Assembly (NCBI GenBank): GCA_964589455.1
Contig: CAZPTC010000001.1
Span: forward strand, 1 to 43,779
Reading direction: 5' to 3'
DNA from: an uncultured Desulfovibrionaceae bacterium
Lineage (GTDB): Bacteria; Desulfobacterota; Desulfovibrionia; Desulfovibrionales; Desulfovibrionaceae
Length of the DNA: 43,779 nt
Each line of letters starts with the position of its first letter. The first letter of the stretch is position 1. The notes under the pieces are model-generated. The model made no database searches and had not been told where the DNA came from. It was given only the letters and a program-made list of their open reading frames with translations. Positions 6,641 through 43,725 of this stretch are shown piece after piece. Made by a program: the position numbers and the translations under genes.

Positions 6641-7007
6641 AAAATTCCCCTTAGCAAAAGGTGAAGAGAGGCGATTGCCTCGCAGGAGAAAAACGCGCAA
6701 TGCGTTGCATTTATACTGCATTGGAAGGACAGATAAATGCCGCGTTAAGTATAGCCTGAAAGACAGGTAAAAAGCAAGTAGGGAAGTGTGGGAAATGGCT
6801 TTTGTCGAAACTGCTGACACCACCGGTAACATGGGAAAAGGGGAAAGAGCGAAACCGTTTTATGCTGTAAAGTCAGCCATATAAAAATATGTTTTTTTAC
6901 TTTGCGCAGGCAGAGAAAATACTCTATATGTACTGGTTCAAAGTATATATGCGCCATTCTGCAGATACCTGATGCGCGCATGTTGGAACAAAAAAAGGAG
7001 CAAACCC

Positions 7008-7976
7008 GTGGGCCAGGCAGGGCAAAAAAAGAAAACAGGCGTAATAGGCCCATTTGGCCAGACAAACCAGCTAAGCGGACACATTGCAGCGCTTGTAAGT
7101 ATTTTGGTGTGGGGGACAACATTTACTTCTACAAAGCTGTTGTTGGAAGACTTTTTACCCATAGAAATTTTATTTTTCCGCTTTGTTATGGGGTATATGG
7201 CTTTGTGGATTGTATTCCCGCACAGATTAAAAAGCACCAATACCAGGCAGGAAATTTTGTTTGCCCTTGCAGGCCTGAGCGGTATTTGTCTGTATTACCT
7301 TTTGGAAAATGTGGCGCTTGTATATACCCTGGCTTCCAATGTAGGGGTTATTATTTCTGTTGCGCCATTTTTTACAGCACTTCTTGTGTATATTGCCATA
7401 CCAGGAGAAGAAAAACCTAACAGAAACTTCTTTTTGGGCTTTGTAGTGGCAATGGCGGGTATTTGCCTTATAAGCCTGCCTGATTCCCCCTTGCGCTTAA
7501 ACCCGCTTGGAGATTTTTTGGCCTTTGCCGCCACCCTTGCATGGGCCTTTTATTCCGTTTTTACACGCAAAATAAGCGCCTTTGGCTATAACACCATACA
7601 AACTACTCGCCGCGTTTTTGCGTATGGCCTTTTGTGGATGCTGCCTTTTTTGCTTTTCTCGGACGCAAGGCTTGGTTTAGAGCGCTTTAGTGACCCTGTT
7701 AATCTTTTTAATATGATTTTTCTGGGGCTTGGCGCTTCTGCTCTTTGCTTTGTCACATGGAATTACGCGGTAAAAGTGCTTGGCGCTGTTAAAAGCAGTG
7801 TGTACATATATATGGTGCCAGTTATTACTGTGCTTACAGCCGTTATTGTGCTGGATGAAAGCATACACGCTCTGGCCGCTGTTGGTATTGTGCTTACACT
7901 TTTTGGCCTTTATATTTCAGAAAAAAAGATAAAAGCGCACAAAATTGTGGTGCGCAAGAAAAAACTTTTGCAATAA
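7008..7976 (+). CDS. EamA/DMT family transporter
   Basis: About 10 predicted TM segments with the typical EamA duplication. GTG 7008 lies 8 nt after AAGGAG (6994-6999). The track ATG at 6972 is an alternative start. Confidence 0.8.
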   Translation: MGQAGQKKKTGVIGPFGQTNQLSGHIAALVSILVWGTTFTSTKLLLEDFLPIEILFFRFVMGYMALWIVFPHRLKSTNTRQEILFALAGLSGICLYYLLENVALVYTLASNVGVIISVAPFFTALLVYIAIPGEEKPNRNFFLGFVVAMAGICLISLPDSPLRLNPLGDFLAFAATLAWAFYSVFTRKISAFGYNTIQTTRRVFAYGLLWMLPFLLFSDARLGLERFSDPVNLFNMIFLGLGASALCFVTWNYAVKVLGAVKSSVYIYMVPVITVLTAVIVLDESIHALAAVGIVLTLFGLYISEKKIKAHKIVVRKKKLLQ

Positions 7977-7996
7977 AAAATACAGGATACAAAAAC

Positions 7997-8036
7997 AACA
8001 CCCCGCAGAACACTTGTTCTACGGGGTGTTGTTTTA
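7997..8036. terminator. Bidirectional intrinsic terminator between the EamA gene and argD
   Basis: AACACCCCG (7997-8005) pairs with CGGGGTGTT (8022-8030). An A-run lies upstream and GTTTT downstream. Confidence 0.7.
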
Positions 8037-8052
8037 ACATAAGAATAGAGGA

Positions 8053-9264
8053 CTATGCGGTATGGGCTATAAGCACTTCTTCCAGCGTCTTCACAAAGCT
8101 GTCTAAATCTGCCTCTGGAATATTCAAGGCAGGCAAAAGACGCAGTGTTGTTTCCTGGCTAAGGCTGCATACATACCCGCGTTCAATAAGGCTTGTCCAT
8201 ACAGCTTTGCTTTTTTCGGCGTCCATATTCAGTTGTGCCCCAACCATAAGACCATGCCCGCGCACTTCTTTAATGCTGCCTTCTACACGGGTGTTAATGG
8301 CGGCAATGTTTTGGCGCAGTTTTTCTCCCAAAGTTTTGGCACGGGCTGCCAAATTGTCCCGCAGCATAATCTCCAACACTTTATCGGCGCAAGCCGTTAG
8401 CAGGGCACCGCCCCCAAATGTGGTGGCATGGCTGCCTGCCACAAAACCCTTGGACACCTCATTAGTCACCAGCATGGCACCTAAAGGCAGGCCATTGGCA
8501 AGGGCTTTTGCGCAGCTCATAACATCTGGCTCCAAGTCAAAAAGCTGGTGAGCCCAAGTTTCCCCTGTACGGCAAAGCCCTGTTTGCACTTCATCCACCA
8601 TAAACAGTATATTCGCTTCTTTGCAAATACCCTGCACAGCTTTTGCGTATTCAGCACCCATAGGCCGAACCCCGCCTTCGCCCTGTATAATTTCTACAAG
8701 CACAGCGGCAGTATGGGGGCCAACAGCCCTTTTTAAGGCCTCTGCATCCCCAAAAGGCACCTGCTTAAAGCCTTCTGGCATGGGCAAAAAACCATCCTGG
8801 AATTTTGTCTGACCAGTAGCTGCCACAGTAGCCAGGGTGCGCCCGTGGAAAGCACCTTGCACGGTTATGATTTCAAAGCGATTTTCGCCCCGCACTTTCT
8901 GCATATAACGGCGCGCCATTTTAATAACCGCCTCATTGGCTTCTGCTCCAGAATTACAGAAAAACACCTTGTCAAAACGGCATGTGCCAAGCAGGCGCTC
9001 CGCGTAGTCAAGCTGTTCTTCCTGATAAAACAAATTGCTCACATGGATAAGCTTGTGGGCGCTTGCGGCAATGGTGTCTGCAAGTTCTGCATGGCAATGC
9101 CCAAGGGAGGTAACGGCTATGCCTGCCAGCAAGTCTATATACTCCTTGCCCTCTGCATCCCACAGGCGCGAGCCTTTGCCTCGGACTACAGAAAGTGGGT
9201 ACCGGCTGTATGTGCGGCAAAGCAGGGCTTCTTCACGCTCTTTTAAATGGGATGTTGTGGACAT
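8053..9264 (-). CDS. argD: Acetylornithine aminotransferase (class III PLP aminotransferase)
   Basis: 403 aa. N-terminus YSRYPLSVVRGKGSRLWDAEGKEYIDLLAGIAV, FCNSGAEANE, DEVQTG, and the PLP-Lys region SCAKALANGLPLGA. Confidence 0.88.
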   Translation of the reverse strand: MSTTSHLKEREEALLCRTYSRYPLSVVRGKGSRLWDAEGKEYIDLLAGIAVTSLGHCHAELADTIAASAHKLIHVSNLFYQEEQLDYAERLLGTCRFDKVFFCNSGAEANEAVIKMARRYMQKVRGENRFEIITVQGAFHGRTLATVAATGQTKFQDGFLPMPEGFKQVPFGDAEALKRAVGPHTAAVLVEIIQGEGGVRPMGAEYAKAVQGICKEANILFMVDEVQTGLCRTGETWAHQLFDLEPDVMSCAKALANGLPLGAMLVTNEVSKGFVAGSHATTFGGGALLTACADKVLEIMLRDNLAARAKTLGEKLRQNIAAINTRVEGSIKEVRGHGLMVGAQLNMDAEKSKAVWTSLIERGYVCSLSQETTLRLLPALNIPEADLDSFVKTLEEVLIAHTA

Positions 9265-9314
9265 AGGGTTCTCCTTGTGTTTTCCTTGGGGGATAATTCC
9301 CCCAACTTGCGGTA

Positions 9315-12300
9315 CTACCAGCGCCAGCCAAGGGTAAAACCACCGTTGAGGCCGGTGTACTGCGCTCGAAAAGCTTCTATACCGCCGAATAAGGAGAATG
9401 TTAAGCGCGAATCTGCGTGGGTAAAATTGGCACTGCCTTGCAGGAGTAAGCTATCGCGGCCGCGTACATTTTTTGTGGTAAAAGGAACATTGTAGCCCAC
9501 AAAATTGGCGCGGAAAGAGCCTGCCTGCAAAAACTCGTGCCCCCAGGCAGCAGAAAGTATACCTTGCACACGCACCTTTTCTGTAAGGTTGCCTGTAAGG
9601 CGCGCCTGAAGCCCAAGGCTGGAGCGCAAAGAATGGGTGCCAGCCCCTGCAATATGCAGCGCTGTTGCGGCATCGCCATGTTCTGTAAAGGCGGGTCTGA
9701 AATAGCCGCCATAAGAAAGCCCTGCAAAAGGCCCGGCAGAAACAAAGTCCCACTGGTGTTCCCAGCCAAGACGAAACTCTGCACTGGCTGTAAAGGCTGT
9801 AAAATCGCTGGTATTTTGTCGGATAAAGGTATTAAGGGCAATACTGCGGCTTGTGCGGGTATTTTCCAGCCCAAGAGCGGCAGCGCCATAAAGCCAGACA
9901 GAACCGGCCCCTAAGGGGTAAAAGTCTTGCGCAAGGGCTTGCACACCCAAAGAAAGCGCATCTACCTGCGACTTTGCGATATGGAGTTCTGTTGTTTGGC
10001 GGTGCGTATACCCAAGAGATATACCAGCCTGTGCCTTGGGGAAGGAAAAGTTCCATGCCCCAAGCATTCCGCCAAACGCTGTTGTAGCGCAAGAAGCGCC
10101 TTTTTGGCCCTTTTGGAACAGGCCGCCACCCATAGGGATAACAGTTGCATAGCTGTTACTGAAAAGACCAGTGCTGCCACTGTTTGCGCCAGACACACCT
10201 TGGCCTTGTGTATGGCTTTGCATAGTGGCAAGTAATGTAGAGGCTTGTATACGGCCATAATCTAAACTTGCCTGTGCTACACCATTGTATACTGTGGGAG
10301 AAAGCGCTTTAAGCGCTTTATGGACAAGACTGCCATTTGTTGCAGAAAAATCCAGAGCTTGGAAAAGGTTTTGGGTATCCCCACTTGCATTGCCAGACAT
10401 ACCATACAGAGCATCCCCAAGATTGTGCATATTGCTGTTGCTTGCATATTGGCTGTAGGCCTGCGGGGCGCGGCTGAGGGAAAGCGTGCCGGAATAGTCT
10501 GGAGCCAGAGTGGCAGCAAGGGAAAGAGTGGGGGAGAAATGCGTAGACAGCGCAAGAGAACCTGCAGAAGCGCCTGCAAAGGTAAGCAGAGGGTTCTGCA
10601 GGATTATGACGGTGTTATTCTGCCAGTAGCCGCTTAAAGGTTCAAGCAACAAAGTTCCGTCCAGGCTGGCTGTGCCAGCAATATTGAGCTGGTCTGCATG
10701 GCCTGCTTTATCAAACTCCATACGCAGCACGCCATTTGCGTACTGGGTATAATCCTGCACAGTAAGCGTGCCAATGCTGTTGCCTGGGGCAACTGTGCCA
10801 TTATTATGCAAAATATTGGCCACTGTGCCATTGCCCATTAATGTGCCTGCAGGCAATACCCAGGCATTTTCTATGCTGCCTTGCAGGGCAGAGCCTGTAG
10901 AAAGGGAAATGGCCCCGCCTTCTATAATGGTAAAGCCGCTGTAAGAATTGTTGCCTGTAAGGTACAGTATGCCTTGCCCTTTTTTGGTAAGGCCAATGGG
11001 TAAACCACCAAGCGCAGCACGGGCATCTGCGGCATTTGCAAAGCCGTAGTATGCAAGCTGGCTGGCATTGTATTCTGTAGGCAAACCAATGGGAATAGAA
11101 GTACCGGGTATATTCCCGTAGGTATCGCCATAGGTTATTTCTGTAATATCATTGCTCCAGATGCTGGAATAGCCCTTGGTATCTACTGTGTATTGCCATT
11201 CTTTTGCGTCGCCATTTATGGCAACAGGGCGTATATCTGTGTTGGGGTTTAACCAGGAAGCTTTAAAATACCCAGGGCCTTGCACTGCTTTGCCGGCATT
11301 TAAATAGCCATGCCCAAAAACATCTGCAAAAGAAACTGTTGTTGTTTCCACATCCAGTGCTAAAAAATCCGCTAAGGTTTTGATTTGATAAAACCCATCA
11401 AGCAGGGCGCTATTTTCATTATAATAGGCTGTCAGATCTGCCGTTTGATCACCGCTCTGGATTGCCCCCTTGAAATAAAGAAGGTTGATTTTGAGCGTCA
11501 CAGTATCAGAGTCAATGATTTCTTTAATCACCGCGGTATAGGGAGCAGGTTCAAATTTGTTTGCCGTAGAAAACATGGTTGAAGTAAGCTGCTTTGCGCT
11601 CATGTACGGGAATGCCTGTTCTACAAGCCCCAAAACACCGCTTGTTATGGGCGCTGCCATAGAAGTGCCAGACATGGACGTATATTCTTTTCCTTTGCCC
11701 GAAAAAGCGGAGATAATATTTATACCGGGTGCTGATACAGCGTAGTCTTGTACACCGTGCATAGCCAGATCGCTGAATATAGCGGGTAAAGCAATAGAAG
11801 AAGTAAGTTTACCAGAATCTAGCGCTATTACAGTGACAAAATTTCCTATAAGTTCAGGGTACTTTAGCGGGATAGCAGACATAATATCCGGGCTGCTCCA
11901 CCCTGAGTTGCCTGCAGCAAAAACCATGACTCTGTCCTGTATGGCCAGATCATAATATGCCTTTGTTGTTTTGGGTATTGATGCCAGAACGCTATAGGTG
12001 GGGTCGTTTTCTAAGGCATACGTATACCCCCAACTATTATTGATAATACGCACTTGCGGGTATTGCAAAAAATAGGAAACAGTTGCGGAATTATACCCAT
12101 CTGTCGTATTTTCACCAAGGGCCATAGCGGAACTTACCAGATTGGCATCATAGGCCACCCCATGCATACCCACGCCATTTTTTTTGGCAACCATGCTGCC
12201 ACCAACATGTGTACCGTGGGTGTGCTTTTCCCAATTTATCACAAGACCATCCGGCACAAACCTTCCCAGCACTTTGCCTTGCAGTTCCGGGTGATACGGC

Positions 12301-27278: not shown

Positions 27279-28097
27279 TTACCAGCTTAACACATCATTT
27301 TTATCAATCTTTGTAAAAAACAATGGGTTGTCAAAGGGGTTGTTGTAATCAAATCCGTATGGGTTTATAGCAAGCTTTTTGCCACTCCATAATATCTTGT
27401 AGTCACTTTGCTGAATTGTCAAAATATCCGGCACGTCTCCAATACGTTCAGCAAGTATAAAAAGCGAACATGGGTTAACACCTGTAAATGGAATTTCTAC
27501 CCTTTGCAGTATAACCTGCGGGTCTGCAATTTTATACCACACGTCATCATATAATGTTGTTGCAATAACATATTTGAGTTTATAGCCATTTTCTTTTATA
27601 AAAAGGGAAAAATACAAATCCGGCGAAAACTGATAAAAACCATGCCCAAACTGGTTATTTGAGGGTGTCATGAGTAAAAGATGCCCACCAAGCGCCACCA
27701 TATCCATAGCATTTTTAAGGGCCACAGGGTAATTAAACACATGCTCTAGTGTACCGCCATCCAGCACTAAAGAATACTGGCTTTTCCAATCATCTGGTAT
27801 AGGGGTATTCATATCATGGATGAAGGTTGGGTTTTCATAATCCCCAAAATCAAAAGAATGGATGCACTGGGCACCTAATTCTTCAAAAAGCTTTTCCGCA
27901 TAAACACTGCCATCTTCCTCCCGTAAGGAAAAAATAGCTTCAGGTGACAGAGCAGTGCCATATATGCTATTTAAAGACTGAATAGCTTGGGGGCTACAAA
28001 AAACAGTTTGTCTGCCAAGCATGGCAGCTTTTGTATATACAACACCCTTTTTTTGGGCAAAAAGCATTTGCTGAACAGAATCAAGAATTAAACCCAT
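27279..28097 (-). CDS. Methyltransferase-like protein (class I fold, degenerate motif I)
   Basis: LVLDGGTLEHVFNYPVALKNAMDMVALGGHLLLMTP resembles methyltransferase motifs II-III. ATG 28097 is preceded by GAGGG. The track GTG at 28130 lacks an RBS. Confidence 0.45.
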   Translation of the reverse strand: MGLILDSVQQMLFAQKKGVVYTKAAMLGRQTVFCSPQAIQSLNSIYGTALSPEAIFSLREEDGSVYAEKLFEELGAQCIHSFDFGDYENPTFIHDMNTPIPDDWKSQYSLVLDGGTLEHVFNYPVALKNAMDMVALGGHLLLMTPSNNQFGHGFYQFSPDLYFSLFIKENGYKLKYVIATTLYDDVWYKIADPQVILQRVEIPFTGVNPCSLFILAERIGDVPDILTIQQSDYKILWSGKKLAINPYGFDYNNPFDNPLFFTKIDKNDVLSW

Positions 28098-28151
28098 AGC
28101 AAGACCCTCACTAATTTTTGGCCAGCCCACTTTGGAAAAAAGCAGGCAATT

Positions 28152-29027
28152 TTAGCTATAACACGCCGCAATGCCTGCTTTATGCGCCTGCACAAATACC
28201 TGTTCTGCATACACAAAGTGGGGCAATACGGGGTTTTCTTTTGCATGTGTTATACCTTGCCCTGCTAAATTAATACTGCCAGAACCTATACTGGAAACTT
28301 CCGAACCAATATTCATGCTGTATGGAAAAAATGGTGTAAGGCTAAGCTGCCCATGCCTGAACCTGTGAAAATCCATAACAATATCCCAGCCAATAGTGGG
28401 GGCACGCAGGGTAGAAAGCAGCATAGCCGCCATATCATCCCCACCCTGGTTAAACGCTTCTATAAGAAATGGGTATTGTTCCATTTCAAAAGCTGCACTG
28501 CCTGTCCAGTCAATATTTTTTACCCTGTCTGACCAAGAGGCCCAGCCCCATATATGCGCACGGGGGCAAAACCAGGCATCCCAGGGGTAATTGCTTGGAA
28601 TTTTCATAGCTGGTGGGCACCAACCATTCACACTAAAAACAGTTTTTTCTTCTGCATATTTTTCTAAAGCCGCGTTAAAATACCGCAAGGTGTAGGGCGA
28701 AAACAAGACATCGTCTTCTAAAAAAATAAATGCCGGGGAAAGGCTTGCCATAGTATTAACAACATACCTGTGCATGTGGCAGGCCCCAATATTGTGCTGC
28801 GGAAAATAATACCTGACAGACGCAAAGCTTTGCTGCACATAGTCACACATGCTCAGCGCCTTTACATGGTCTACTGCCTGCTGTTCTTCAGGAAAGCGCG
28901 GTGCGTCTATAAAAACATGCAAAACATGTTGCTTTGCACCTTCAGCCTCGCACAGGGCTTTAAGGGTTATATCCACTGTTTGTGGTCTGTTAAACGCCAT
29001 ATAAGCAATAGGTACTGGCCCAAGCAT
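28152..29027 (-). CDS. GT-A fold glycosyltransferase (GNT-I/GT13-like, EDD motif)
   Basis: IAYMAFNRP...VFIDAP, LEDDVLFSP, WGWASW. A strong RBS (GGGGAGGG) precedes ATG 29027. Confidence 0.55.
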   Translation of the reverse strand: MLGPVPIAYMAFNRPQTVDITLKALCEAEGAKQHVLHVFIDAPRFPEEQQAVDHVKALSMCDYVQQSFASVRYYFPQHNIGACHMHRYVVNTMASLSPAFIFLEDDVLFSPYTLRYFNAALEKYAEEKTVFSVNGWCPPAMKIPSNYPWDAWFCPRAHIWGWASWSDRVKNIDWTGSAAFEMEQYPFLIEAFNQGGDDMAAMLLSTLRAPTIGWDIVMDFHRFRHGQLSLTPFFPYSMNIGSEVSSIGSGSINLAGQGITHAKENPVLPHFVYAEQVFVQAHKAGIAACYS

Positions 29028-29078
29028 ATTCCCTCCCCATTCTGCCGCTTGGAAAAAAAGCAGTGCGTGTTTTTAATA

Positions 29079-29094
29079 TGCAAGCTTTGTGCCA
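29079..29094 (-). promoter_or_regulatory. Sigma-54 (-24/-12) promoter, perfect consensus
   Basis: The minus strand reads TGGCAC-AAAGC-TTGCA. It lies 52-67 nt upstream of ATG 29027, giving a predicted 5' UTR of about 40 nt. It is divergent from the HK/NtrC-type operon. Confidence 0.75.
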
Positions 29095-29218
29095 CATTAA
29101 TCGCATATTTGGGCATTTTTTTGCCAAGCTTGACTTTACCCCCAAAAAGACACACAATTATTCATCAACTTTTTCCACCTTTTCTGAACATTGTCCAGCG
29201 AATTTTCGCAAGCCCCCT

Positions 29219-30661
29219 ATGTCCAAGCCCTTTTCTTCCAGCTCCAGCCTGCCATTTTCTATGGCCCGCGTACTTTCGTGGGTTATGCTTATCCTTGTGC
29301 TGGCCTCCAGCCTGTTCCTTTCCTTTTTTATTTCCAACACCATGCGCACGGCACTTATTAACAGCCAGGAAGAATACGCCCTTTTGCTTGCCCAGAATAT
29401 GAACAAGCAAATATTCAGGCGCTTTACCTTACCTGTTGCCATGGCTTCCGGCCGTGTGGCCTTGGCAGACCCAGACCAATACCGCCTTTTGGATGAAGTG
29501 GTGCTTTCCCTTATGCATGGTCTGCAAATTGACCGCATACGCATTTATGACGAAAATTTGGCGGTCACCTACTCTACAGACAAAGAAGAAGTAGGCCGCC
29601 TTGACCTTGCCACACCCGGCATTTCCTACATATTTGAAGGCACGCCCAACCATTTTGATGTTATTTCCCGCACAGATTCCACACGCGCCTTTTTCAGTCC
29701 AACCCTAGAACCCGGCAGTTTTTTGCTGCGCACCGTGTACCCATTAAGCATTGACCAAGAGCTTGGCTTATATACAGACGAAGCCCCGGTTTTAGGTGCT
29801 TTGGAAATTATACAGGATGTCACCAGCCATTACGCCATTGTCACGCGCTCTATGTGGCTTGTGCTTCTGGGTTTTACCATTTCTTCTCTGGTGCTTTTTA
29901 TTATTATCCAGTTTGTGGCGCGCAAGGCAGAAGCCACCCTGAGCGAGCGTATGGCCAGAACCCGCCAGCTTGAGGCTGAACTGCACCAAAGCGAAAAAAT
30001 GGCCACTATGGGGCATATGGTGGCCTCTATTGCACATGAAATACGTAACCCTCTTGGCATTATACGCTCCAGTTCTGAGTTTATGTTAACCCGCAATAAA
30101 CAAAAGCAAACCATTGATGCTTCCGTTATCCCCATGCTGGAAGCTATTTACGATGAATCCTGCCGCCTTGGCACCACAGTGAATGACTTTTTGGACTACG
30201 CACGCCCGCGCGACCCCAACCTGCAACCTGTCAATATATTGCAGCTTATCCAAAAAGCTCTGCTTTTTTTGCAGAATGAGTTTGAGGCAAGCGCTATAAC
30301 AGTTGACCTCCATGTGCCAGAAAATCTCATGATAGATGCAGATGCAGACTTGCTCTACCGCGCAATTTACAATATCCTTGTTAACGCGCAGCAGGCAATA
30401 GGGAAGGAAGGCAATATATCTGTGCGCGGCCATAGCGAAAAAGGCGGGGTATACCTTGTCTTTTTGGATACTGGCCCAGGTTTTCCGCCAGATTTTCTTA
30501 AAAAACCCATTGAACCTTTCTTCACCACCAAAGATACTGGCACTGGGCTTGGCCTTTCTATTGTGCAAGCCATTATCCAATCACACGGGGCAACACTTTC
30601 TCTTGATAATACAGATGAACACAACGCAAGTGTGACCATATTTTTTCCCAGCAAACGCTGA
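29219..30661 (+). CDS. Sensor histidine kinase (NtrB/AtoS-like; 2 TM plus periplasmic domain, HisKA, HATPase_c)
   Basis: H-box ASIAHEIRNPLGII, N-box NILVNAQQA, G-box GTGLGLSIVQAI. The start is uncertain (29219 or 29261); the track start is 29063. Confidence 0.85.
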   Translation: MSKPFSSSSSLPFSMARVLSWVMLILVLASSLFLSFFISNTMRTALINSQEEYALLLAQNMNKQIFRRFTLPVAMASGRVALADPDQYRLLDEVVLSLMHGLQIDRIRIYDENLAVTYSTDKEEVGRLDLATPGISYIFEGTPNHFDVISRTDSTRAFFSPTLEPGSFLLRTVYPLSIDQELGLYTDEAPVLGALEIIQDVTSHYAIVTRSMWLVLLGFTISSLVLFIIIQFVARKAEATLSERMARTRQLEAELHQSEKMATMGHMVASIAHEIRNPLGIIRSSSEFMLTRNKQKQTIDASVIPMLEAIYDESCRLGTTVNDFLDYARPRDPNLQPVNILQLIQKALLFLQNEFEASAITVDLHVPENLMIDADADLLYRAIYNILVNAQQAIGKEGNISVRGHSEKGGVYLVFLDTGPGFPPDFLKKPIEPFFTTKDTGTGLGLSIVQAIIQSHGATLSLDNTDEHNASVTIFFPSKR

Positions 30662-30679: not shown

Positions 30680-32059
30680 ATGAGTGACACAGCCCATATC
30701 CTTATTGTGGACGATGAAAAAAACTATTTGCTTATATTAGGCGCCATTTTAGAAGATGCCGGCTATAAGATAACTTCCCTTTCAGACCCAGAAATGGCAC
30801 TGGCCTTTTTGGACGACTCGGAAGTGGATGTTGTTATCACAGATATGAAAATGCCCAAGCTCACTGGCAAGGAGCTTTTGCAGGCCATTAAGAAAAAGCT
30901 GCCCCATATACCTGTGCTTATTATGACGGCTTTTGGCTCTATTGAAAGCGCGGTAGAAGCCATGCGGGATGGCGCGTTTGACTACATAACCAAGCCCTTT
31001 GCCAATGATGAAATTATTCTTTCTGTGCATAATGCGGTTGCCCTTTCTAAAGCGCACCAGCAATACCACCTTTTACAGCAAAACTTAGAAGAACGGTACA
31101 GCACCCACCAGATTATAGGCAATTCCAAAGCCATACGCGATACCCTAAGCCTTGTAGACCGTGTTTCCCAAAGCCGCTCAACTGTGCTTATAACCGGGGA
31201 ATCCGGCACAGGGAAAGAGCTTATTGCCCGTGCCATACACTTTTCTTCTGCGCGTAAAGACGCACCTTTTATTTCTGTAAACTGTCTGGCCTTTAACCAG
31301 GGCGTGCTGGAAAGTGAACTTTTTGGCCATGAAAAAGGCAGTTTTACAGGCGCAACAGCCATGCGACGCGGCAGGTTTGAGCAAGCCAACCACGGCACCC
31401 TTTTTCTGGATGAAGTAGGGGAGCTTGGGCTGGATTTGCAGGTAAAACTTTTGCGTGTGCTGCAGGAACGCACCTTTGAGCGTGTGGGCGGCACAGACCA
31501 GGTAGATGTAGATATACGCATTGTGGCTGCCACCAATAAGTCTTTAGAAACCTTAGTGCAGGAAGGCAAATTTAGGGAAGATCTTTTTTACCGCCTCAAT
31601 GTGGTACAAATACATATACCCCCTTTGCGGGAAAGAAGGGAAGATATACCCTTGCTGGTTTCCCACTTCAGCCAGAAAATTGCGGCAGAAAACACCATAC
31701 CCCCCAAAACATTCACGCAGGAAGCCCTTAACTACCTTACAGGGTACGAGTGGCCGGGCAATATACGCCAGTTGCAAAATGTGGTAGAGCGCTGCATGGT
31801 TATGGTGCCAAGCATTAATATAACAGTGGACGAACTGCCCCCGGAAATAAAGGACGAGGAAGCCCAGTTTAAAAGCGCGGTAGACCTTTTGCCTATTGAA
31901 TTAAATCTGGCGGACACTATGGATAAAATAGAAGCCGCCCTTATACGCCGCGCCCTTGTGCGCAGTGACTTTGTACAGGCCAATGCCGCTGACCTTTTGG
32001 GAATTTCCCGCAGTCTTATCCAGTACAAGCTGAAAAAATACAATATTATGGGGCACTAG
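30680..32059 (+). CDS. Sigma-54-dependent response regulator (NtrC family)
   Basis: Receiver (ILIVDDE ... DMKMP), AAA+ domain (GESGTGKE, ESELFGHEKGSFTGA, the GAFTGA-type loop), C-terminal Fis-type HTH. Confidence 0.92.
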   Translation: MSDTAHILIVDDEKNYLLILGAILEDAGYKITSLSDPEMALAFLDDSEVDVVITDMKMPKLTGKELLQAIKKKLPHIPVLIMTAFGSIESAVEAMRDGAFDYITKPFANDEIILSVHNAVALSKAHQQYHLLQQNLEERYSTHQIIGNSKAIRDTLSLVDRVSQSRSTVLITGESGTGKELIARAIHFSSARKDAPFISVNCLAFNQGVLESELFGHEKGSFTGATAMRRGRFEQANHGTLFLDEVGELGLDLQVKLLRVLQERTFERVGGTDQVDVDIRIVAATNKSLETLVQEGKFREDLFYRLNVVQIHIPPLRERREDIPLLVSHFSQKIAAENTIPPKTFTQEALNYLTGYEWPGNIRQLQNVVERCMVMVPSINITVDELPPEIKDEEAQFKSAVDLLPIELNLADTMDKIEAALIRRALVRSDFVQANAADLLGISRSLIQYKLKKYNIMGH

Positions 32060-36904: not shown

Positions 36905-38242
36905 CTAAAAGTCCACCACTACCTTTTCCATTCTGGCAAGGTCGCGCTTATAGGTGAAAGAAGCACACAAGAACAACACACCACTGATAAGGGAACAAAC
37001 TGCCATAAGGGATATAGCGGTGACTATATCAAAGCGGTCAGACAAAAAGCCCATTAAGGTGGGGCCAACGGCCATACCAAAAATGTTTTGCACCACAATC
37101 ATAATAGAAGCAGCGGAAGCTCTGTGGTGGGGCAAGGAAAGGTCAGCTATTACAGTAAGGCAAGTAAGAGTTGTGGGTCCAAGAAAAAAGCCGTACACCA
37201 TAACCATAATAAGCTGGGCGCCGCTGGCTGGGGTAAAGAATTGGAAGCATAAAAGAATGCCAAAAAAGCCAATAAGGCCGCACAAAGCCACAACTTTAAG
37301 GGTATTGTGCATGCCAATGCGCCTGCGCAGCCAGTCTGCACCTACGCCATAGAGAATCATATACACAAGGGAAATAAGCATGGTAGAGGCAGCAAGGCTT
37401 GCTGCCAGGGAAGGGGTAGCATTAGCAACACGCACAAAGTATGTAGGCAGCCAGTTCATAAGGGCTGTGCTTACAATAACCATGGTTGTCTGCCCAAGAA
37501 CAGCAAATGCAAGGGTAGGTTTGGTGACAAGGTTAAGAAGAATTTTAAGGTAATTAACCTTTTCAGCCTCAAGCTGCACACACTCGCCCTGCACTTCTTC
37601 CACTTTTTTGACGCCTTTAAAGTCTTTTATAAACAGGGCAGTAAAAGCAAGAATAAGGCCGGGAATGGCAAACAAACCAAATGCGTGCTGCCAGCCCCAT
37701 TTAGAGGCAATAAGCGCGCCAACAGCCAAACCAATAGGCGCACCAAGTGTCATACCAATATTAAGGCATGCCAAAATGGTGGCTCTGTATTTTTCCGGGA
37801 ATGAGGCTACAAGTAAACTTTGACCGGCAGGGCCATAACCTGCTTCACCAGCGCCCACAAATAAACGGCAAACCAGCAATTGGGCAAAGGACGTACTAAA
37901 GGCGCACATGGCAGTTGCAAAGCTCCACACAAACGCCATAATGCCCATCATTTTTTTGCGGCTCCACTTATCAATAAAATACGCGGCAGGCAGTGCAAAA
38001 ACCGCCAACCCAATATTAACTATGGAAAGTAAAAGGCCAAGCTGGGTGTCTGACAAGCCAAAGTCTTTTTGCAGATACGGAAGCAGCGCTGTGATAACCT
38101 GCCTGTCTGCCATATCCAATACGCCCAAAAGTAACACAATAAAAAGTGTAAGAAAAGCCGCTTTTTTACCTATTGGCCAAGCATCTTTAGATGGCTCGCA
38201 GGCAAGGTCTTGTTGCGTTGCTGCTGGATTTTTCGTAGCCAT
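36905..38242 (-). CDS. MFS transporter
   Basis: About 12 TM segments and the loop 2-3 motif DKWSRKK. Start taken at MATKNP (38242); the track start is 38272. Confidence 0.85.
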   Translation of the reverse strand: MATKNPAATQQDLACEPSKDAWPIGKKAAFLTLFIVLLLGVLDMADRQVITALLPYLQKDFGLSDTQLGLLLSIVNIGLAVFALPAAYFIDKWSRKKMMGIMAFVWSFATAMCAFSTSFAQLLVCRLFVGAGEAGYGPAGQSLLVASFPEKYRATILACLNIGMTLGAPIGLAVGALIASKWGWQHAFGLFAIPGLILAFTALFIKDFKGVKKVEEVQGECVQLEAEKVNYLKILLNLVTKPTLAFAVLGQTTMVIVSTALMNWLPTYFVRVANATPSLAASLAASTMLISLVYMILYGVGADWLRRRIGMHNTLKVVALCGLIGFFGILLCFQFFTPASGAQLIMVMVYGFFLGPTTLTCLTVIADLSLPHHRASAASIMIVVQNIFGMAVGPTLMGFLSDRFDIVTAISLMAVCSLISGVLFLCASFTYKRDLARMEKVVVDF

Positions 38243-38354
38243 AAAAATCACTCCCGGTTGTAGTTTGTACACGAGAATTCACACAAAAAGACGTGGCTGC
38301 ACCTGCAATTTCTGCTGTGAAAAAGCATTCATCTTGCAGACACAGCCATTAGAG

Positions 38355-40313
38355 CTAATCTTTATTTGGGTTTTCCATTATCTGGTACAATACACTCCCT
38401 TCAGCATCTTTCGGGATAGGCCAGCCTGTCAGGTAGCAAATGGTGGGCACATAGTCCACAATATTGCTTACCCGCTTCATGGCGTAGCCTTTTTTAATGC
38501 CTATTTCAGGGCCATAGAACACGCTTAAGGCACGCATATCGCCCATTTCCCCGTAGGTAGAAGTGGGGAGTATAGAGCCGTGCTGTTCAGAATATTCTGG
38601 CCAAAGGGCGTACACAACGTCGCCGCACTGGTCACCACCCTGACCAATAAGCATGGCTTCTTTCTTAGGCAGAGCAAGAATAAAGGGGCGCTTGCCTGTC
38701 TTGGGGTCTACATAGGTCATAAGGGTATCGATAATTTCGCGCTGCACTTTTTCGTAATCTTCCGGTTCCACAATACCACCTGGATCGCGACCCTTCAGGT
38801 TTACATACACAAAGCACATACGTTGGGGTATAGCCTTGGACTTACTGGCATCAATTTTGGAGGCCATAGTAATAAAGACTTCGCGTATGGCTTCCGGGCA
38901 ACCTTCTATCCAGTCCGGTATGGGGGTTTCCTTTTTAATGGTAAGGCCAGCCTTGCCAAGCACATCAAACATATTGATATGGGGGCCGTCTGGTGTTGCG
39001 CCGTGGTCAGAAATAAGCACAACAAGGGTTTGGTCTGTAAAGAGCTTAAGCATACGGCCAAGGTAGCGGTCTGCCGCAATATACAGGCGGCGGTGCAGAT
39101 TCCACGCTTTATCGTACGCTTCCTTGCTGGTGCAGGTGGCAGTGTTCAGTTCTGCCATAAAAACGTGGTAAAAATAGTCTGTGGGGTGGGCGTGGGTAAA
39201 AAAAAGATCCCAGTCACCACCACCCAGTAACGATTCAACGGTGTCACCCATCCAATCGTAGTGGTTTTCAATATTCTCAAGCCATGTTACTTCGTCTATC
39301 CAACCAAGAGACATACCCGCCATAAGGGTGTTATTGGTGGCGCAGTTATTGCCTTTGTTCATACCCGCGGCTTTTTCCGGTGGGTAGCACCAAAGCTCGC
39401 CATCTTCACTAAGGCCGCTGTTCAAAAAAAGCTTAAAGTTTGTGGCGTCATCATCCATGCCCATAAACTTGCCTTTAAAGCGCACCTTTTTGCTGCCACC
39501 ATCTGCCAGGGGGCAAGTGGCTGTGAAGGCGGGTGTCCATTCACCGGGCTTTACTGTGAAAAATGCGTCTTTAAAGTCTTTGGAGGGAGAAAGGCTGGCG
39601 TATTCATAGCCATTGCCAAGGTCGCGCACCAGCCAATACCAAATGGCTTTGCCCGGCTTGGAAAGGGAAAGGTTAAAGGGGATATCTACCGCGCATTCCA
39701 AAGCATCGTCGCCCATATCCGGGACATTTTGCCAGCCCTGAGCTTTGACAAACTTCACTTTAGCGCAGGTACCTGGGTAGGTTTCCGTAGAAAACATAAT
39801 ATCATCGCAGAAGGTGTACATGGAAGCCACACCTTCAGGAAGCGGTGTTCCAAGAAGCTGGCTGATCAGGTCTTCATCAAGAAAGCAGCCGGGCGTCATG
39901 GATGCGCCACCCACAACTGTGGCACTCGGCACTTTTTTATGCGCGTTGTAGGACATGGGATAGTTAAGAATAACACTCTTTTTGCCCGCTTTTGCGGCAG
40001 CTTCCCAAATGGTTTCTGCTTTGCAGTGGTCAAGGTTTAAACAGGTATGGGTATTGGCGTTTTCTGGCGCAGTGCCTGGTATATGACGCCAAAAGTCGCA
40101 AATCTGGTTGGTGATAGGCCACGCGCCTGTGGCCATACACGTCCAGTTTGGCGGCGTAATAGTGGGGTAGGGCACCAGACAGTTTTCTGCCACTGTGCCA
40201 TTGTCAAAAATCTTTTTAAAGTTAGGCAGCACACCCTCATCAATATGCTTACGCACAAGGGGGGTAAGGGCGCAATCAAAGCCAAGCATGGCTACCTTGT
40301 TTGCTTTTTTCAT
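38355..40313 (-). CDS. Alkaline phosphatase superfamily protein, nucleotide pyrophosphatase/phosphodiesterase (NPP, PF01663-like)
   Basis: GFDCALTP (metal Asp), YPTITPPNWTCMATG (NPP Thr-nucleophile motif P-[ST]-x-T-x-P-N), LISDHGAT. Confidence 0.75.
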   Translation of the reverse strand: MKKANKVAMLGFDCALTPLVRKHIDEGVLPNFKKIFDNGTVAENCLVPYPTITPPNWTCMATGAWPITNQICDFWRHIPGTAPENANTHTCLNLDHCKAETIWEAAAKAGKKSVILNYPMSYNAHKKVPSATVVGGASMTPGCFLDEDLISQLLGTPLPEGVASMYTFCDDIMFSTETYPGTCAKVKFVKAQGWQNVPDMGDDALECAVDIPFNLSLSKPGKAIWYWLVRDLGNGYEYASLSPSKDFKDAFFTVKPGEWTPAFTATCPLADGGSKKVRFKGKFMGMDDDATNFKLFLNSGLSEDGELWCYPPEKAAGMNKGNNCATNNTLMAGMSLGWIDEVTWLENIENHYDWMGDTVESLLGGGDWDLFFTHAHPTDYFYHVFMAELNTATCTSKEAYDKAWNLHRRLYIAADRYLGRMLKLFTDQTLVVLISDHGATPDGPHINMFDVLGKAGLTIKKETPIPDWIEGCPEAIREVFITMASKIDASKSKAIPQRMCFVYVNLKGRDPGGIVEPEDYEKVQREIIDTLMTYVDPKTGKRPFILALPKKEAMLIGQGGDQCGDVVYALWPEYSEQHGSILPTSTYGEMGDMRALSVFYGPEIGIKKGYAMKRVSNIVDYVPTICYLTGWPIPKDAEGSVLYQIMENPNKD

Positions 40314-40334: not shown

Positions 40335-40366
40335 AATATTGCGGACTCGCTCCAGGCCGCAATATT
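40335..40366 (-). other. Intercistronic hairpin between the sulfatase-like and NPP-like genes
   Basis: AATATTGCGG, 12-nt loop, CCGCAATATT, a perfect 10-bp stem with no convincing U-run. Confidence 0.5.
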
Positions 40367-40382
40367 GTAAGATTTAATACAA

Positions 40383-41954
40383 CTATGATGCCTGAAGTTC
40401 CGCCATGAATGCCTGAAGTTTTTTCAGAAGCTCCAAGGCTTTTTCCGGGTTTTTATCGGCTATGTTATGCAGTTGGAAGGGATCTTTTTTTCTGTCGTAC
40501 AGTTCATCACGCGCGGGAACATCCGCTGTGGAGCTGGGGGTGCATGTCCATTGTGCCTCATCATCAAGGTTGGCTTCCGCCTGATAACGGGCCGCCTGTT
40601 CGTTAATGGGCGCATTTTGCGGGGGCAGACTTTCTGCAGGTACCATAGCCGCCAAGTGACCCATAGTTTCTTCGCCACCTTGCAGAATACCAGCGCAGCT
40701 TTTAGAAATGCTTTCTTCTTCTTCCCGCAGCCAGTGGATAAAACTGTAGTCTTCCGTGATAATAGACCATGAATAGCGGTGGTAACCCGCTATGGCAAAA
40801 TCGCGCACTTTTTCCTTTTCCCCTGTGCAAAGCGGCAAAAGACTTTTGCCTTGCATGGAAGGGTGTACGCCAATGCCCAGCCAGTCTGTAATGGTGGGGG
40901 CTACGTCGCACGATTGCGCAAAACCCTTTACCCGCTTGCCAGCTTCCATACCTGGGGCGCGTATAATAAGGGGTATATGCACCAGCTCTTCATACGGCCA
41001 AGGGCGGCATTTACGCATAATGCCATGCCCATGCTCGCCATGCCCCATAGGTTCGCCGTGGTCTGCCGTAAGCAAAATAAGGGTGTTTTCGTACAGGCCG
41101 GCCTTACGCACAGCATCTAAAAACTTGCCCACATACGTATCGCATAAGGTTACAAGTTCTGCGTACAGCATACGGATATGGTGCAGCTCTGCTTCCGTAA
41201 ACATGCTGGCTTCGCCCACAAGGGGCAAAAACATATCCTTGCCCTTGTAGTCTGGGTCATACATAGACTTACGCTCTGGGTCATAAATAGAAGGCGGGTC
41301 CCAAGGTTCATGGGGGTCAAAGCTATCTACCCACAAAAAGAAAGACTTTGTCCTGTCGTGGCGCTCAATATACTCAATAGCCGCTTCCATAGTGCGGGCA
41401 ACGTGCCTGTCTTCATCGCCACGCCAGTATTGGCGCAAACGCAAAAACGCCTCCACTTCATGCAGCATGGAAGGCACACCGCCAAGGTCATTGGGGTTAT
41501 CAGGGTCCCCTTCTTCAAGCATGTGGTCTTCCACATAGTCACTTACGGCTAAGTGATACAGAGGGTCACATTCATAATAAAACTGGTCTGCCTCATGCCC
41601 GTGCAAAAATATGACCTTGTCAAAACTGCGGGAGAAGCCAAACTTAGGTAAGCGCAAAGGCGCGCTGTCATACACCAGGCAAGTGTCAATGGGTCTGCCC
41701 CAGCAAAGGTCTGCCACTGTAGTATCTTCATGGCTTAAAGCCTTCCAGCCAATACTAGGCAGGGTGTAGCGGCCTGTGAACATAGCACGGCGCACAGGTA
41801 TAGTGGGCAAGCCTTCAGAATAGGCGTTTTCAAATAACACGCCTTCGCGCGCAAGCGCATCAATATTAGGGGTTTTTATCCATGTGTTGCCGTAACAGCC
41901 CAAATAATTGTGCTGTAAACTGTCTAGCATAATGCCAATAGCATTTTTCCGCAT
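40383..41954 (-). CDS. Sulfatase-fold (PF00884-like) hydrolase with Thr in place of the formylglycine Cys/Ser
   Basis: IMLDSL (metal Asp), LPTIPVRRAMFTGRY aligning to C/S-x-P-x-R-x4-TGR, and ADHGEPMGHGEHGHG. Confidence 0.8.
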   Translation of the reverse strand: MRKNAIGIMLDSLQHNYLGCYGNTWIKTPNIDALAREGVLFENAYSEGLPTIPVRRAMFTGRYTLPSIGWKALSHEDTTVADLCWGRPIDTCLVYDSAPLRLPKFGFSRSFDKVIFLHGHEADQFYYECDPLYHLAVSDYVEDHMLEEGDPDNPNDLGGVPSMLHEVEAFLRLRQYWRGDEDRHVARTMEAAIEYIERHDRTKSFFLWVDSFDPHEPWDPPSIYDPERKSMYDPDYKGKDMFLPLVGEASMFTEAELHHIRMLYAELVTLCDTYVGKFLDAVRKAGLYENTLILLTADHGEPMGHGEHGHGIMRKCRPWPYEELVHIPLIIRAPGMEAGKRVKGFAQSCDVAPTITDWLGIGVHPSMQGKSLLPLCTGEKEKVRDFAIAGYHRYSWSIITEDYSFIHWLREEEESISKSCAGILQGGEETMGHLAAMVPAESLPPQNAPINEQAARYQAEANLDDEAQWTCTPSSTADVPARDELYDRKKDPFQLHNIADKNPEKALELLKKLQAFMAELQAS

Positions 41955-41985
41955 CGCAACCTCCTATCTATTTTAGAAAGCAAAT

Positions 41986-42001
41986 TGCGAAAAACGTGCC
42001 A
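41986..42001 (-). promoter_or_regulatory. Sigma-54 (-24/-12) promoter for the sulfatase-like/NPP/MFS operon
   Basis: The minus strand reads TGGCACG-TTTT-TCGCA, 32-47 nt upstream of ATG 41954, whose RBS is AGGAGG. It is divergent from the EBP gene. Confidence 0.7.
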
Positions 42002-42123: not shown

Positions 42124-43725
42124 ATGCCTGAATCCTTTCTTACCTCCACACTCTCTTCCACACTTCTTGCCCTTAGCCAGCATGGCGGCTTAGAAACTTC
42201 CATACGCCCCCTTTTCAACTCCTTGCAGGAAAAAATCCCTTTAAATGCCCTGCACCTTTTCCAAATTATGCAGCAGCCTGGCGGACGCCTTTCTTTAGTC
42301 ATACTTGCGTATGTGGACGAATACGGCACTGAGCGTAAGCACCTGCGCTGCGACCTTGTAGATACATTTACCTCCCCTGTGTTGCGCGAAAAATATTTTT
42401 CTCCCACCAGTGACCTGCCTATTATCCACGGTGATCTTTTTTCCGACCCCGTTACTGCCGGTGCCTCGCAAACCCTTTTTCCAGAATATAATTCCTCACT
42501 TTCTCTTTTCCTCATCCAAATGGACAAAACCTACTACTTCCTTTGCGCGTTAGCCCGTAAACCCCACGCCTTTACAGAAAAAGACAGTCTGGTTCTCGCA
42601 AAACTGCAACAACCATGCGCCATGTTTTGTGAAAAATTCACCACCCGCAACCTGGGCCTGCTTACCCCCACAGACATGACCGTACACCACACCACCAGCC
42701 TTTTTTCAGACGATCCCGTGGAAATGCTGCGGGCCTGCAAAGCCATGCCAGAAGTTTTGCGCTTTGCAGAAAAAGCCGCCCAAAGCAAAGCCCCCGTCCT
42801 TATTCTTGGGGAAACAGGGGTTGGCAAAGAAGTAGTGGCAGACGCCATACACGCCCTTTCCAGCCGCAAACACGGCCCCTATATTAAAATCAACTGCGGT
42901 GCCCTTGCCGAACACCTTGTTGACAGCGAACTTTTTGGCCACGAACGCGGCAGCTTTACAGGCGCCTTCAGAGAAACACAAGGCTACTTTGAACAGGCAC
43001 ACGGCGGCACCCTGCTTTTAGACGAAGTAGGCGACTTGCCCCTGCATACCCAAATACGCCTTCTGCGCGTGCTGGACAGGCGCGAAATACAAAAAGTTGG
43101 CGGCGTCATCCATAAAGGGCTGGATATACGCATTATCGCCGCCACAAACGCCAACTTGCCCCAACTTCTTGAAGAAGGCGCTTTCCGCAAAGACCTCTAC
43201 TTCCGCCTCAGCACCCTTATGGTCTCCATACCCCCCCTGCGTAAAAGACGAGAAGATATACCCGTGCTTATCCGTATGCTCTGGGCCAGTAAATCCAAAG
43301 ACTATAACCTTGAAACAGCACCCGAAATACCAGAAAGCGAAATGCTCAAACTTCTGCTGTACCCCTGGCCCGGCAATGTGCGCGAACTTAATGCCGTATT
43401 AGACAGAACCCTGTTAGATTACACCACCAACCATGTACTGCACTTTTCCCTGCAAGAAGCCCCGCGCGTGTTCCGAGGCGTCGCCAACTTGGAAGCAACA
43501 GACCAGACACCCAAAAACTACCCCACCACCCCTTCCCGACATACCAGCCTTATGCCCCTTGACCAAATGCTGGCTGACCATGTGGCAGAAGCGTTGCGCC
43601 GCTGCGGCAAAATAAATGGCCCAGGCGGCGCTGCAGAAATGCTGGGCATACACCCCAGCACCCTCCGCGCCAGAATAAAAAAATTGGGGATACGGAGCGC
43701 GTTGGGGGAGGGAAAACCCTTTTAG
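42124..43725 (+). CDS. Sigma-54-dependent transcriptional activator (EBP) with an N-terminal GAF-like sensory domain and no receiver
   Basis: GETGVGKE Walker A, DSELFGHERGSFTGA, RKRREDIP, C-terminal Fis-type HTH. AGGAGG at 42113-42118. Confidence 0.9.
   Translation: MPESFLTSTLSSTLLALSQHGGLETSIRPLFNSLQEKIPLNALHLFQIMQQPGGRLSLVILAYVDEYGTERKHLRCDLVDTFTSPVLREKYFSPTSDLPIIHGDLFSDPVTAGASQTLFPEYNSSLSLFLIQMDKTYYFLCALARKPHAFTEKDSLVLAKLQQPCAMFCEKFTTRNLGLLTPTDMTVHHTTSLFSDDPVEMLRACKAMPEVLRFAEKAAQSKAPVLILGETGVGKEVVADAIHALSSRKHGPYIKINCGALAEHLVDSELFGHERGSFTGAFRETQGYFEQAHGGTLLLDEVGDLPLHTQIRLLRVLDRREIQKVGGVIHKGLDIRIIAATNANLPQLLEEGAFRKDLYFRLSTLMVSIPPLRKRREDIPVLIRMLWASKSKDYNLETAPEIPESEMLKLLLYPWPGNVRELNAVLDRTLLDYTTNHVLHFSLQEAPRVFRGVANLEATDQTPKNYPTTPSRHTSLMPLDQMLADHVAEALRRCGKINGPGGAAEMLGIHPSTLRARIKKLGIRSALGEGKPF

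Follow-up and report, generated by a model that had tools for sequence, protein, structure and literature searches.

Why would a protein built like a type I sulfatase carry threonine at the position where these enzymes carry the Cys or Ser that becomes formylglycine, and what could such a protein do? This question is raised by P0001, a 523-aa protein encoded in a 43,779-nt stretch of DNA from an uncultured Desulfovibrionaceae bacterium (assembly GCA_964589455.1, contig CAZPTC010000001.1), which as a whole is referred to here as the window. We propose, with a probability of about 0.6, that P0001 is a metal-dependent cytoplasmic ester hydrolase, which uses the scaffold of sulfatases and PMHs without formylglycine and works within an import-and-cleave module. 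Judged from their sequences, P0001 and its relatives, which number in the thousands, appear to form a Thr-type clade of the sulfatase fold, which is unnamed and lies outside the S1, PMH/PehA, LtaS/EptA, and NPP groups; literature searches found no description of a sulfatase-fold family of the T-x-P-x-R type.

Threonine at the formylglycine position

P0001 matches the Sulfatase family PF00884 of Pfam (3.4e-40, residues 3-361) together with the SGSH_C sub-domain. The gene and the residues that bear on its function are located as follows.

40383-41954, minus strand: P0001, an intact open reading frame (ORF) for a Thr-type sulfatase-fold enzyme of 523 aa (PF00884 and SGSH_C), first gene of the putative operon
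41960-41965, minus strand: ribosome-binding site AGGAGG, 5 nt ahead of the P0001 start codon ATG (41952-41954, minus strand)
41922-41924, minus strand: Asp11 of IMLDSL, first metal ligand by alignment and invariant throughout the family; it is followed by Ser12 in place of the second Asp of S1 sulfatases
41769-41807, minus strand: signature P50-T51-I-P53-V-R55-R-A-M-F-T60-G61-R62, counterpart of C/S-x-P-x-R-x(4)-T-G by in-register HMMER alignments
41667-41669, minus strand: Asp96, nearly invariant in the clade, in the column of the active-site Lys (GKWH motif) of S1 sulfatases
41310-41312, minus strand: His215 in D-S-F-D-P-H-E-P-W, invariant, which aligns with the PH-motif His of sulfatases
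41010-41063, minus strand: Asp298-His299 (metal ligands by alignment, DHGE), the His-rich loop G-H-G-E-H-G-H-G, and Lys315 in the column of the anion-binding Lys of sulfatases

In pairwise and profile HMMER alignments, Thr51 (codon ACT, 41802-41804, minus strand; context G-L-P-T51-I-P-V-R55-R-A-M-F-T60-G61-R) falls on the Cys/Ser column, which is that of formylglycine, in 4uph, 7oz8, 4upk, 5g2v, and 4upl, and P53, R55, and T60-G61 are in register with the same sulfatase and PMH structures. An earlier note on this DNA had likened the protein to type I sulfatases through the Asp of IMLDSL and the DHGE motif, and had placed Thr instead of Cys or Ser at the formylglycine position; both observations hold in these alignments. 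From the S1 active-site set, which comprises D-D, K-x-H, H, D-N/H, and K, the protein keeps D11, H215, D298-H299, and K315, but differs in Ser12, in Asp96, and in a missing His. When compared with the arylsulfatase of P. aeruginosa, the equivalent of Lys113 is Asp96, and the equivalent of His115 is missing in the P0001 subfamily. Across the Thr-type family, Ser or Thr takes the place of the second Asp in the DD pair, and the His after the GKWH-Lys column is variable. A sequencing error or a pseudogene was ruled out by the intact ORF and by the conservation of the Thr in homologs and paralogs. A Cys at +3 (PTVPCRR) was likewise rejected as the nucleophile, as it is out of the C-x-P-x-R register, and this residue is Val in P0001 and Ala, Asn, or Thr elsewhere.

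The AlphaFold2 model of P0001, for which 54 relatives were used as input, reached a pLDDT of 85.8 and a pTM of 0.87, and its closest folds in the PDB are RlPMH (2vqr), BcPMH (2w8s), 4uph, and many S1 sulfatases (Foldseek E ~1e-25, TM ~0.65). Residues 419-476 constitute a low-confidence insertion of about 60 residues in this model. Scores against curated models are all under the sulfatase cut-offs, with 156 vs. 481 bits for arylsulfatase and 88 vs. 433 bits for choline sulfatase, and they are also low for PehA (NCBIfam NF045661, 126 vs. a cut-off of 900 bits), LtaS (NF053595, 38 vs. 970 bits), and YejM (18 vs. 825 bits). PF01663 matches only residues 267-300, which are 34 residues round the DHG motif (34 bits), and searches of the ESM Atlas returned generic sulfatase clusters and nothing further. 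No signal peptide or hydrophobic N-terminus was found in P0001; because the Pfam match starts from residue 3 and the metal Asp stands at residue 11, no room is left for a signal peptide, and the protein is thus predicted to be cytoplasmic. Among the RNA datasets, none was listed as matching this stretch, and the one DNA run that matches is an animal gut metagenome, which is probably the source of the DNA.

Conservation and distribution of the Thr-type family

The threonine is not a peculiarity of one gene, as it was kept in 120 out of 120 best homologs (57-66% identity), including 109 with the strict pattern and 11 that differ only at TG and were read by eye. Named sources among these homologs are Chloroflexota/Dehalococcoidales, one Deltaproteobacteria metagenome-assembled genome (MAG), and Mailhella. 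In a more distant set, which consists of the 150 best cluster representatives from a library of 1.84 billion proteins, the signature was located in 110, where it has Thr in 102 and Cys in four. All 44 paralogs of the window genome that include the N-terminus carry Thr as well, and so do all 50 Thr-type members of a 54-sequence alignment. The positions D11, P53, R55, G61, W70, H215, D298, H299, and G300 are invariant in the latter alignment, and T51, D96, E216, H310, and K315 are nearly so; the column of Asp96 has D in 48/50 Thr-type members and in 4/4 of the Cys type. The earlier note had regarded P0001 as a single odd gene, whereas it in fact belongs to a very large and conserved family.

The peptide D-x-F-[DA]-P-H-E-P-[WF] was confirmed in at least 583 stretches in species-representative genomes of bacteria and archaea. 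Among the matches listed, Desulfovibrionaceae are represented by Bilophila wadsworthia ATCC 49260, Mailhella, and Maridesulfovibrio, other Desulfobacterota by Dethiosulfatarculus sandiegensis SPR, Desulforhopalus singaporensis DSM 12130, Desulfobacula, and Desulfatitalea, further phyla by Chloroflexota, Armatimonadota, Planctomycetota, Poribacteria, and Acidobacteriota, and archaea by Bathyarchaeia, Thermoprotei, and Asgard. P0001 has every mark of the Thr-type clade, which are P-T-x-P-x-R, D-[ST], D-x-F-D-P-H-E-P-W, S/T-D-H-G...K, and no signal peptide.

The four Cys-type representatives (P0174, P0217, P0229, and P0259; S-F-P-C-M-P-A-R) form one subclade with 99% support, which is nested in the Thr-type diversity (FastTree, local support values, midpoint root). 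All four carry an extra His in T-D-H-Y-H, compared with T-D-[TCS]-x-H in the Thr-type members. Such an exchange of Thr and Cys at one column, coupled to a change of a His, is what a catalytic nucleophile at position 51 would lead one to expect.

Operon, promoter, and regulator

P0001 is followed on the same strand by two genes and faces a divergently transcribed regulator, with the features given below.

41987-42001, minus strand: sigma-54 type -24/-12 element TGGCACGTTTTTCGC, 33 nt upstream of the P0001 ATG
40335-40366, minus strand: perfect 10-bp hairpin (AATATTGCGG ... CCGCAATATT) in the 69-nt spacer between P0001 and P0002, with no U-tract after it, by reading of the sequence
38355-40313, minus strand: P0002, 652-aa cytoplasmic NPP-type protein (PF01663), second gene of the putative operon, by Pfam and motif alignment
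36905-38272, minus strand: P0003, MFS transporter of the anion:cation symporter type, third gene of the putative operon, by Pfam and curated models
42124-43725, plus strand: P0004, divergent sigma-54 activator with a GAF-like sensor (residues 1-180), AAA+ domain, and Fis-type helix-turn-helix, by Pfam, curated models, and fold

The nucleophile motif of P0002, Y-P-T-I-T-P-P-N-W, aligns with Y-P-T-K-T-F-P-N-H of ENPP1, and the protein thereby shows the NPP feature that P0001 lacks, namely a full-length PF01663 match that takes in both the Thr nucleophile motif and the bimetal ligands. A segment of about 270 residues in P0002 (roughly 130-400) has no Pfam match. P0003 is likely to be the substrate importer. 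The N-terminal 180 residues of P0004 gave no match in Pfam; the sensor folds as GAF in an AlphaFold2 model (pLDDT 67), for which the top Foldseek matches are all GAF domains. From this arrangement, P0001-P0002-P0003 together with P0004 look like an inducible import-and-cleave operon.

Expansion in the genome and in the Desulfovibrionaceae

The genome to which the window belongs (2.51 Mb, 365 contigs, 86% complete; its PolA is ~55% identical to those of Mailhella/Desulfovibrionaceae) contains 55 Thr-type ORFs like P0001, which amount to about 46-55 paralogs. Their pairwise identities are 42-89%, and 34 of the ORFs reach a length of 480 aa or more. It also contains about 21-27 NPP-like ORFs similar to P0002, 39 sigma-54 activators similar to P0004, 14 fused TRAP DctQM and 12 DctP proteins, nine GltS-like carriers, and 10 MFS transporters. 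The recurrent unit consists of an activator, one or more hydrolases, and a transporter; the hydrolase genes form tandem arrays with as many as four members. The assembled DNA is made up of Thr-type genes to 2.8%, activators to 2.3%, and NPP-like genes to 1.2%. In addition, 29 of the hydrolase ORFs touch a contig end, indicating that these repeats break the assembly.

A sigma-54 box was found upstream of 9/38 Thr-type, 3/15 NPP-like, and 20/1958 other genes, which represents a ~20-fold enrichment at the Thr-type paralogs. The sensor domains of the activators share only 13-26% identity between paralogs, as expected for different ligands, and this suggests that each module may respond to a ligand of its own.

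A sister species, whose genome is 93% complete, has 48 Thr-type copies. Among the 151 family genomes sampled, 22 have any Thr-type copy, mostly one or two each, and two further Desulfovibrionaceae genera show smaller expansions with 17-22 candidates. All three genera with an expanded Thr-type family have an expanded NPP-like family too. What is new here is the extreme genus-specific co-expansion of genes for Thr-type enzymes, NPP-type enzymes, activators, and anion importers.

Maturation and sulfur metabolism

The earlier remark that no maturase gene lies near P0001 can be extended to the whole assembly, where the best match to anSME (TIGR03942) reached 64 bits vs. a cut-off of 349 bits. No bona fide FGE was found in the window genome, whose single PF03781 protein is weakly GldK/PvdO-like, and a search with family profiles found no Cys/Ser-type sulfatase there; the extra matches of this search were the NPP-like family, iPGM (read from its N-terminus), and two proteins with hydrophobic N-termini. 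One radical-SAM/SPASM gene with a weak resemblance to anSME was tested and proved to encode AhbD, heme b synthase (589 bits; contig C66:2712-4013, minus strand); it adjoins hemB (C66:4660-5682, minus strand), which indicates that the organism uses the alternative siroheme-dependent heme pathway.

As for sulfur metabolism, the sister genome carries dsrA (641 bits, contig C198) with an adjacent weaker match read as dsrB, and in the window genome a similarly weak match (90 bits) lies at the end of a contig and was likewise read as dsrB (C90:7546-8925, minus strand). No sat, aprA, or PFL-like glycyl-radical enzyme and no Xsc above the cut-off was found in the window and sister genomes, while both sat and aprA were detected in a control relative genome. 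Because dsrA and dsrB matches were found without sat or aprA in these two genomes, which are 86% and 93% complete, the genus looks like a Bilophila-style sulfite respirer unable to activate sulfate. No CysH-like enzyme was found in the window genome.

Proposed mechanism

If P0001 is an ester hydrolase without formylglycine, Asp11, Asp298, and His299 would hold a divalent metal, which would activate the hydroxyl of Thr51 for attack on the tetrahedral centre, sulfur or phosphorus, of a small imported anionic ester. Arg55, His215, and Lys315 may take part in the binding of the anionic group and in the departure of the alcohol, after which water would hydrolyze the sulfo- or phospho-threonyl enzyme, possibly aided by the clade-specific Asp96 or the His-rich loops. 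We infer covalent catalysis by Thr51 and the role of the metal from the register and conservation described above. The divergent GAF-domain activator would switch on the three-gene sigma-54 operon, one of about 50 such modules in the genome. The group removed is estimated to be a sulfate ester at ~40%, a phosphate or phosphonate ester at ~35%, and another group, including group transfer, at ~25%.

Several points weigh against this proposal. The best PDB matches share only ~20% identity with P0001, and no structure of the family has been solved. No maturase was found in a genome that is only 86% complete, and one may hence have been missed. In work by Recksiek and colleagues in 1998, Ser replacing formylglycine in a canonical S1 site was reportedly sulfated and not released; accordingly, turnover by a Thr-type enzyme would need some further feature. 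For its sulfate half, it is a drawback that, to our knowledge, all characterised Ser/Thr nucleophiles of the alkaline phosphatase superfamily act on phosphorus. For its phosphate half, the adverse signs are the paralog explosion in the style of sulfatases, the hosts that are sulfur bacteria or belong to sulfatase-rich phyla, and the arylsulfotransferase-like and thioredoxin neighbours, all of which fit sulfate esters at least as well as phosphate esters. It should be mentioned, on the other hand, that an S1 sulfatase without formylglycine still turns over many times (PMC6189696).

In the earlier note, the enzyme was held to be a phosphoesterase or transferase rather than a sulfatase. Thr at the nucleophile position, the retained metal ligands and anion-binding His and Lys, the search for a maturase that found none, the changes at residues tied to formylglycine, the NPP-type partner, and the scores below the cut-offs all speak for it, and "not a sulfatase" is a plausible reading of P0001. 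Sulfate chemistry is plausible as well. A transferase of the LtaS/EptA type is excluded by the lack of a membrane anchor and by the low LtaS score.

Alternative explanations

A possible, though tentatively held, alternative is that P0001 is specifically a phosphorus-centred esterase, which acts with its NPP-type partner on imported organophosphates or organophosphonates, and that the family has left sulfate chemistry. Thr and Ser nucleophiles of the superfamily are, as a matter of general knowledge, known only for phosphoryl transfer (AP, NPP, iPGM, PhnA, LtaS, and EptA), the best structural matches include the PMHs 2vqr, 2w8s, and 4uph, the operon partner P0002 retains the NPP Thr motif, and the MFS partner P0003 is distantly similar to carriers of organophosphates of the PgtP/UhpT type. 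Moreover, the change from Lys to Asp96 in the subfamily, together with the extra His residues H118, H120, H305, and H308, could form a second metal site. However, we know of no precedent for a set of fifty cytoplasmic phosphatases that are inducible by substrate and have carboxylate-type importers of their own, and phosphorus scavenging is normally under Pho regulation. The hosts of the family are mostly respirers of sulfur oxyanions or members of sulfatase-rich phyla, and some relatives are coupled to thioredoxin and thioredoxin reductase or to arylsulfotransferase-like genes, for which a phosphatase has no need.

The thioredoxin couplings emerged from a survey of 80 loci of Thr-type relatives, where the neighbours also include anion carriers (TRAP, TctABC, and DASS) and regulators (sigma-54 activators and Crp/Fnr). 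At 10-12 of the 80 loci, the Thr-type gene is directly followed, on the same strand, by genes for a thioredoxin with CPHC (or CPYC) and for a flavoprotein similar to thioredoxin reductase, as for instance in L030, L035, L041, L044, and L055; in L040, the thioredoxin stands at the end of the stretch, and in L036, the pair lies upstream of the Thr-type gene on the same strand (~7000-10500 in each of these seven loci). Hosts of such triplets include Dethiosulfatarculus, Maridesulfovibrio, Desulforhopalus singaporensis, Desulfobacula, Bilophila, and other Desulfobacterota. Genes for Crp/Fnr and DASS transporters are often found beside the thioredoxin-linked clusters. Furthermore, an arylsulfotransferase-like (PF05935) cytoplasmic gene is present inside one NPP/TRAP/activator module of the window genome (contig C160:4001-5521, plus strand), and another MAG of the Desulfovibrionaceae has a 654-bit relative close to its Thr-type gene P0062 (L012, 4466-5905, plus strand). 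One cluster of neighbours, "c1" (673 aa, no Pfam match), was discarded, as it consists of antisense ORFs over sulfatase-like genes in GC-rich genomes.

From the thioredoxin pairs, it could be speculated that the enzymes are sulfate-ester reductases, in which the sulfuryl group is passed to Thr51 and then taken off by a thiol (from a Trx3-type CPHC thioredoxin, which a TR3-like reductase would regenerate) to yield sulfite, not sulfate. In thioredoxin-linked members, and possibly in the gut genus, this sulfite would feed DsrAB respiration and H2S formation without the ATP-dependent activation of sulfate, and it is in keeping with this that the genus has dsr matches, yet shows none of the four other sulfur-metabolism genes sought. 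The same-strand triplets themselves are in its favour, as is the PTIPVRR motif of P0001, which is common to eight out of 10 thioredoxin-linked enzymes; in addition, the Trx3/TR3 pair of Desulfovibrio has been described as of unknown function (PMC5627308). Nevertheless, we consider this explanation unlikely. No CPHC thioredoxin was found in the window assembly, nor a thioredoxin/reductase pair there or beside P0001; the thioredoxin link concerns the family of P0001 and not its own locus; a thioredoxin neighbour is lacking in most of the family, also in non-sulfur phyla; the chemistry would be unprecedented for the fold; and no CysH-like enzyme was found in the genome. No publication linking Bilophila, sulfatase, and thioredoxin reductase was found in the literature.

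Less probable still is that an unrecognised enzyme oxidises Thr51 after translation to a ketone (3-oxo) residue, the hydrate of which would act like formylglycine, so that the family would consist of true sulfatases with methyl-formylglycine as their cofactor. According to work by Grove and colleagues in Biochemistry in 2013, anSME is said to convert threonyl peptides to the ketone in vitro. The P-x-R-x(4)-T-G motif recognised by maturases is fully conserved, and the authors of SulfAtlas note that oxidation of Thr would yield a ketone (PMC5066984). Against this, the candidates for a maturase are a 64-bit anSME match, a radical-SAM/SPASM gene that proved to be AhbD, and one weak GldK/PvdO-like protein with an FGE domain. 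A true FGE, moreover, requires O2. The His that serves the formylglycine diol was lost in the P0001 subfamily and regained in the nested Cys-type subclade, which also disagrees with a ketone. Finally, it is hardly credible that P0001 is a non-catalytic relic with a ligand-binding or regulatory role and no nucleophile, as the missing canonical nucleophile and the low curated sulfatase scores might suggest, because the metal ligands, Arg55, His215, Lys315, and Thr51 are (nearly) invariant across phyla and in about 50 paralogs diverged to 42% identity, indicating purifying selection on the active site, and Thr is a proven nucleophile elsewhere in the superfamily.

Comparison with known enzymes

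Among characterised enzymes, the PMHs and cytoplasmic arylsulfatases (2vqr, 2w8s, 4uph, and SpAS1/2, 4upi/4upl) rank among its best sequence matches and resemble P0001 in fold, in the Asp/Asp-His metal site, in the PH-motif His, in the Lys of GEHG...K, and in having no signal peptide. Their nucleophile is formylglycine derived from Cys, whereas that of P0001 would be Thr, the identity is ~20%, and P0001 has the insertion 419-476 and His-rich loops. With the S1 sulfatases of SulfAtlas (BT4656 5g2v, choline sulfatase, and P. aeruginosa AtsA), P0001 has in common PF00884 plus SGSH_C, x-x-P-x-R-x(4)-T-G, the metal Asp, Asp-His, His, and Lys, and expansion to dozens of paralogs per genome is a feature of both. 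Unlike them, P0001 has Thr for Cys/Ser, D-S for DD, Asp96 for the GKWH Lys, no next His, and no maturase that was found; S1 sulfatases are secreted, while the Thr-type enzymes are predicted to be cytoplasmic and are paired with importers. P0001 lies outside S1 by definition, because the test for a Cys/Ser nucleophile fails. Many seed sequences of PF00884 likewise carry Thr, in their case of the TxNxE type, and are excluded from S1 by SulfAtlas (PMC5066984).

LtaS, EptA/MCR-1, and OpgB share with P0001 the Pfam family, a metal-bound Thr nucleophile (predicted in P0001), and the DHG motif. They are membrane-anchored extracytoplasmic transferases of lipid headgroups with a TxNxE-like motif (PMC5066984), whereas P0001 is predicted to be soluble and keeps the P-x-R-x(4)-T-G helix. 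The NPP/PhnA branch (PF01663, including P0002) shares the Thr nucleophile, the core of the superfamily, a cytoplasmic paralog family, and the co-expansion, from which P0001 differs by its 34-residue PF01663 match and by Lys315 at the column of the anion-binding Lys of S1. With regard to the Trx3/TR3 system of Desulfovibrio vulgaris (a CPHC thioredoxin and an NADH-preferring reductase), relatives of P0001 with PTIPVRR lie directly upstream of similar genes.

Implications

Automated pipelines label members of this family as "sulfatase" or "arylsulfatase A-like", and counts of sulfatases in genomes from marine sediment and gut have been used to infer the use of organosulfates (PMC6129605). If formylglycine cannot be formed in a large clade that spans phyla, enzymes of unassigned chemistry may be among those counted. 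That one scaffold bears Thr in the majority of members, and Cys in a subclade nested among them, amounts to a natural experiment on the catalytic contribution of formylglycine. A gut genus of Desulfovibrionaceae with a small genome devotes ~6% of its DNA to Thr-type hydrolases, NPP-type partners, and GAF/sigma-54 sensors, and its niche appears to be the use of some class of anionic esters. Should the enzymes release sulfate or sulfite, this would bear on intestinal H2S production. It is also conceivable, but doubtful, that the Thr-type clade represents a formylglycine-independent use of organic sulfate esters by anaerobes, with sulfite released by thiols in the thioredoxin-linked members. Since Bilophila wadsworthia ATCC 49260, Desulforhopalus singaporensis DSM 12130, and Dethiosulfatarculus sandiegensis SPR are cultured carriers, the question is testable.

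A second sigma-54 box in the window

Besides the element ahead of P0001, a perfect sigma-54 box TGGCACAAAGCTTGC is present at 29080-29094 (minus strand), 53 nt upstream of two consecutive ORFs at 28152-29027 and 27279-28130 (both minus strand). Neither ORF has a Pfam match, and both diverge from the genes for a histidine kinase (29063-30661) and for a sigma-54 activator of the response-regulator type (30680-32059).

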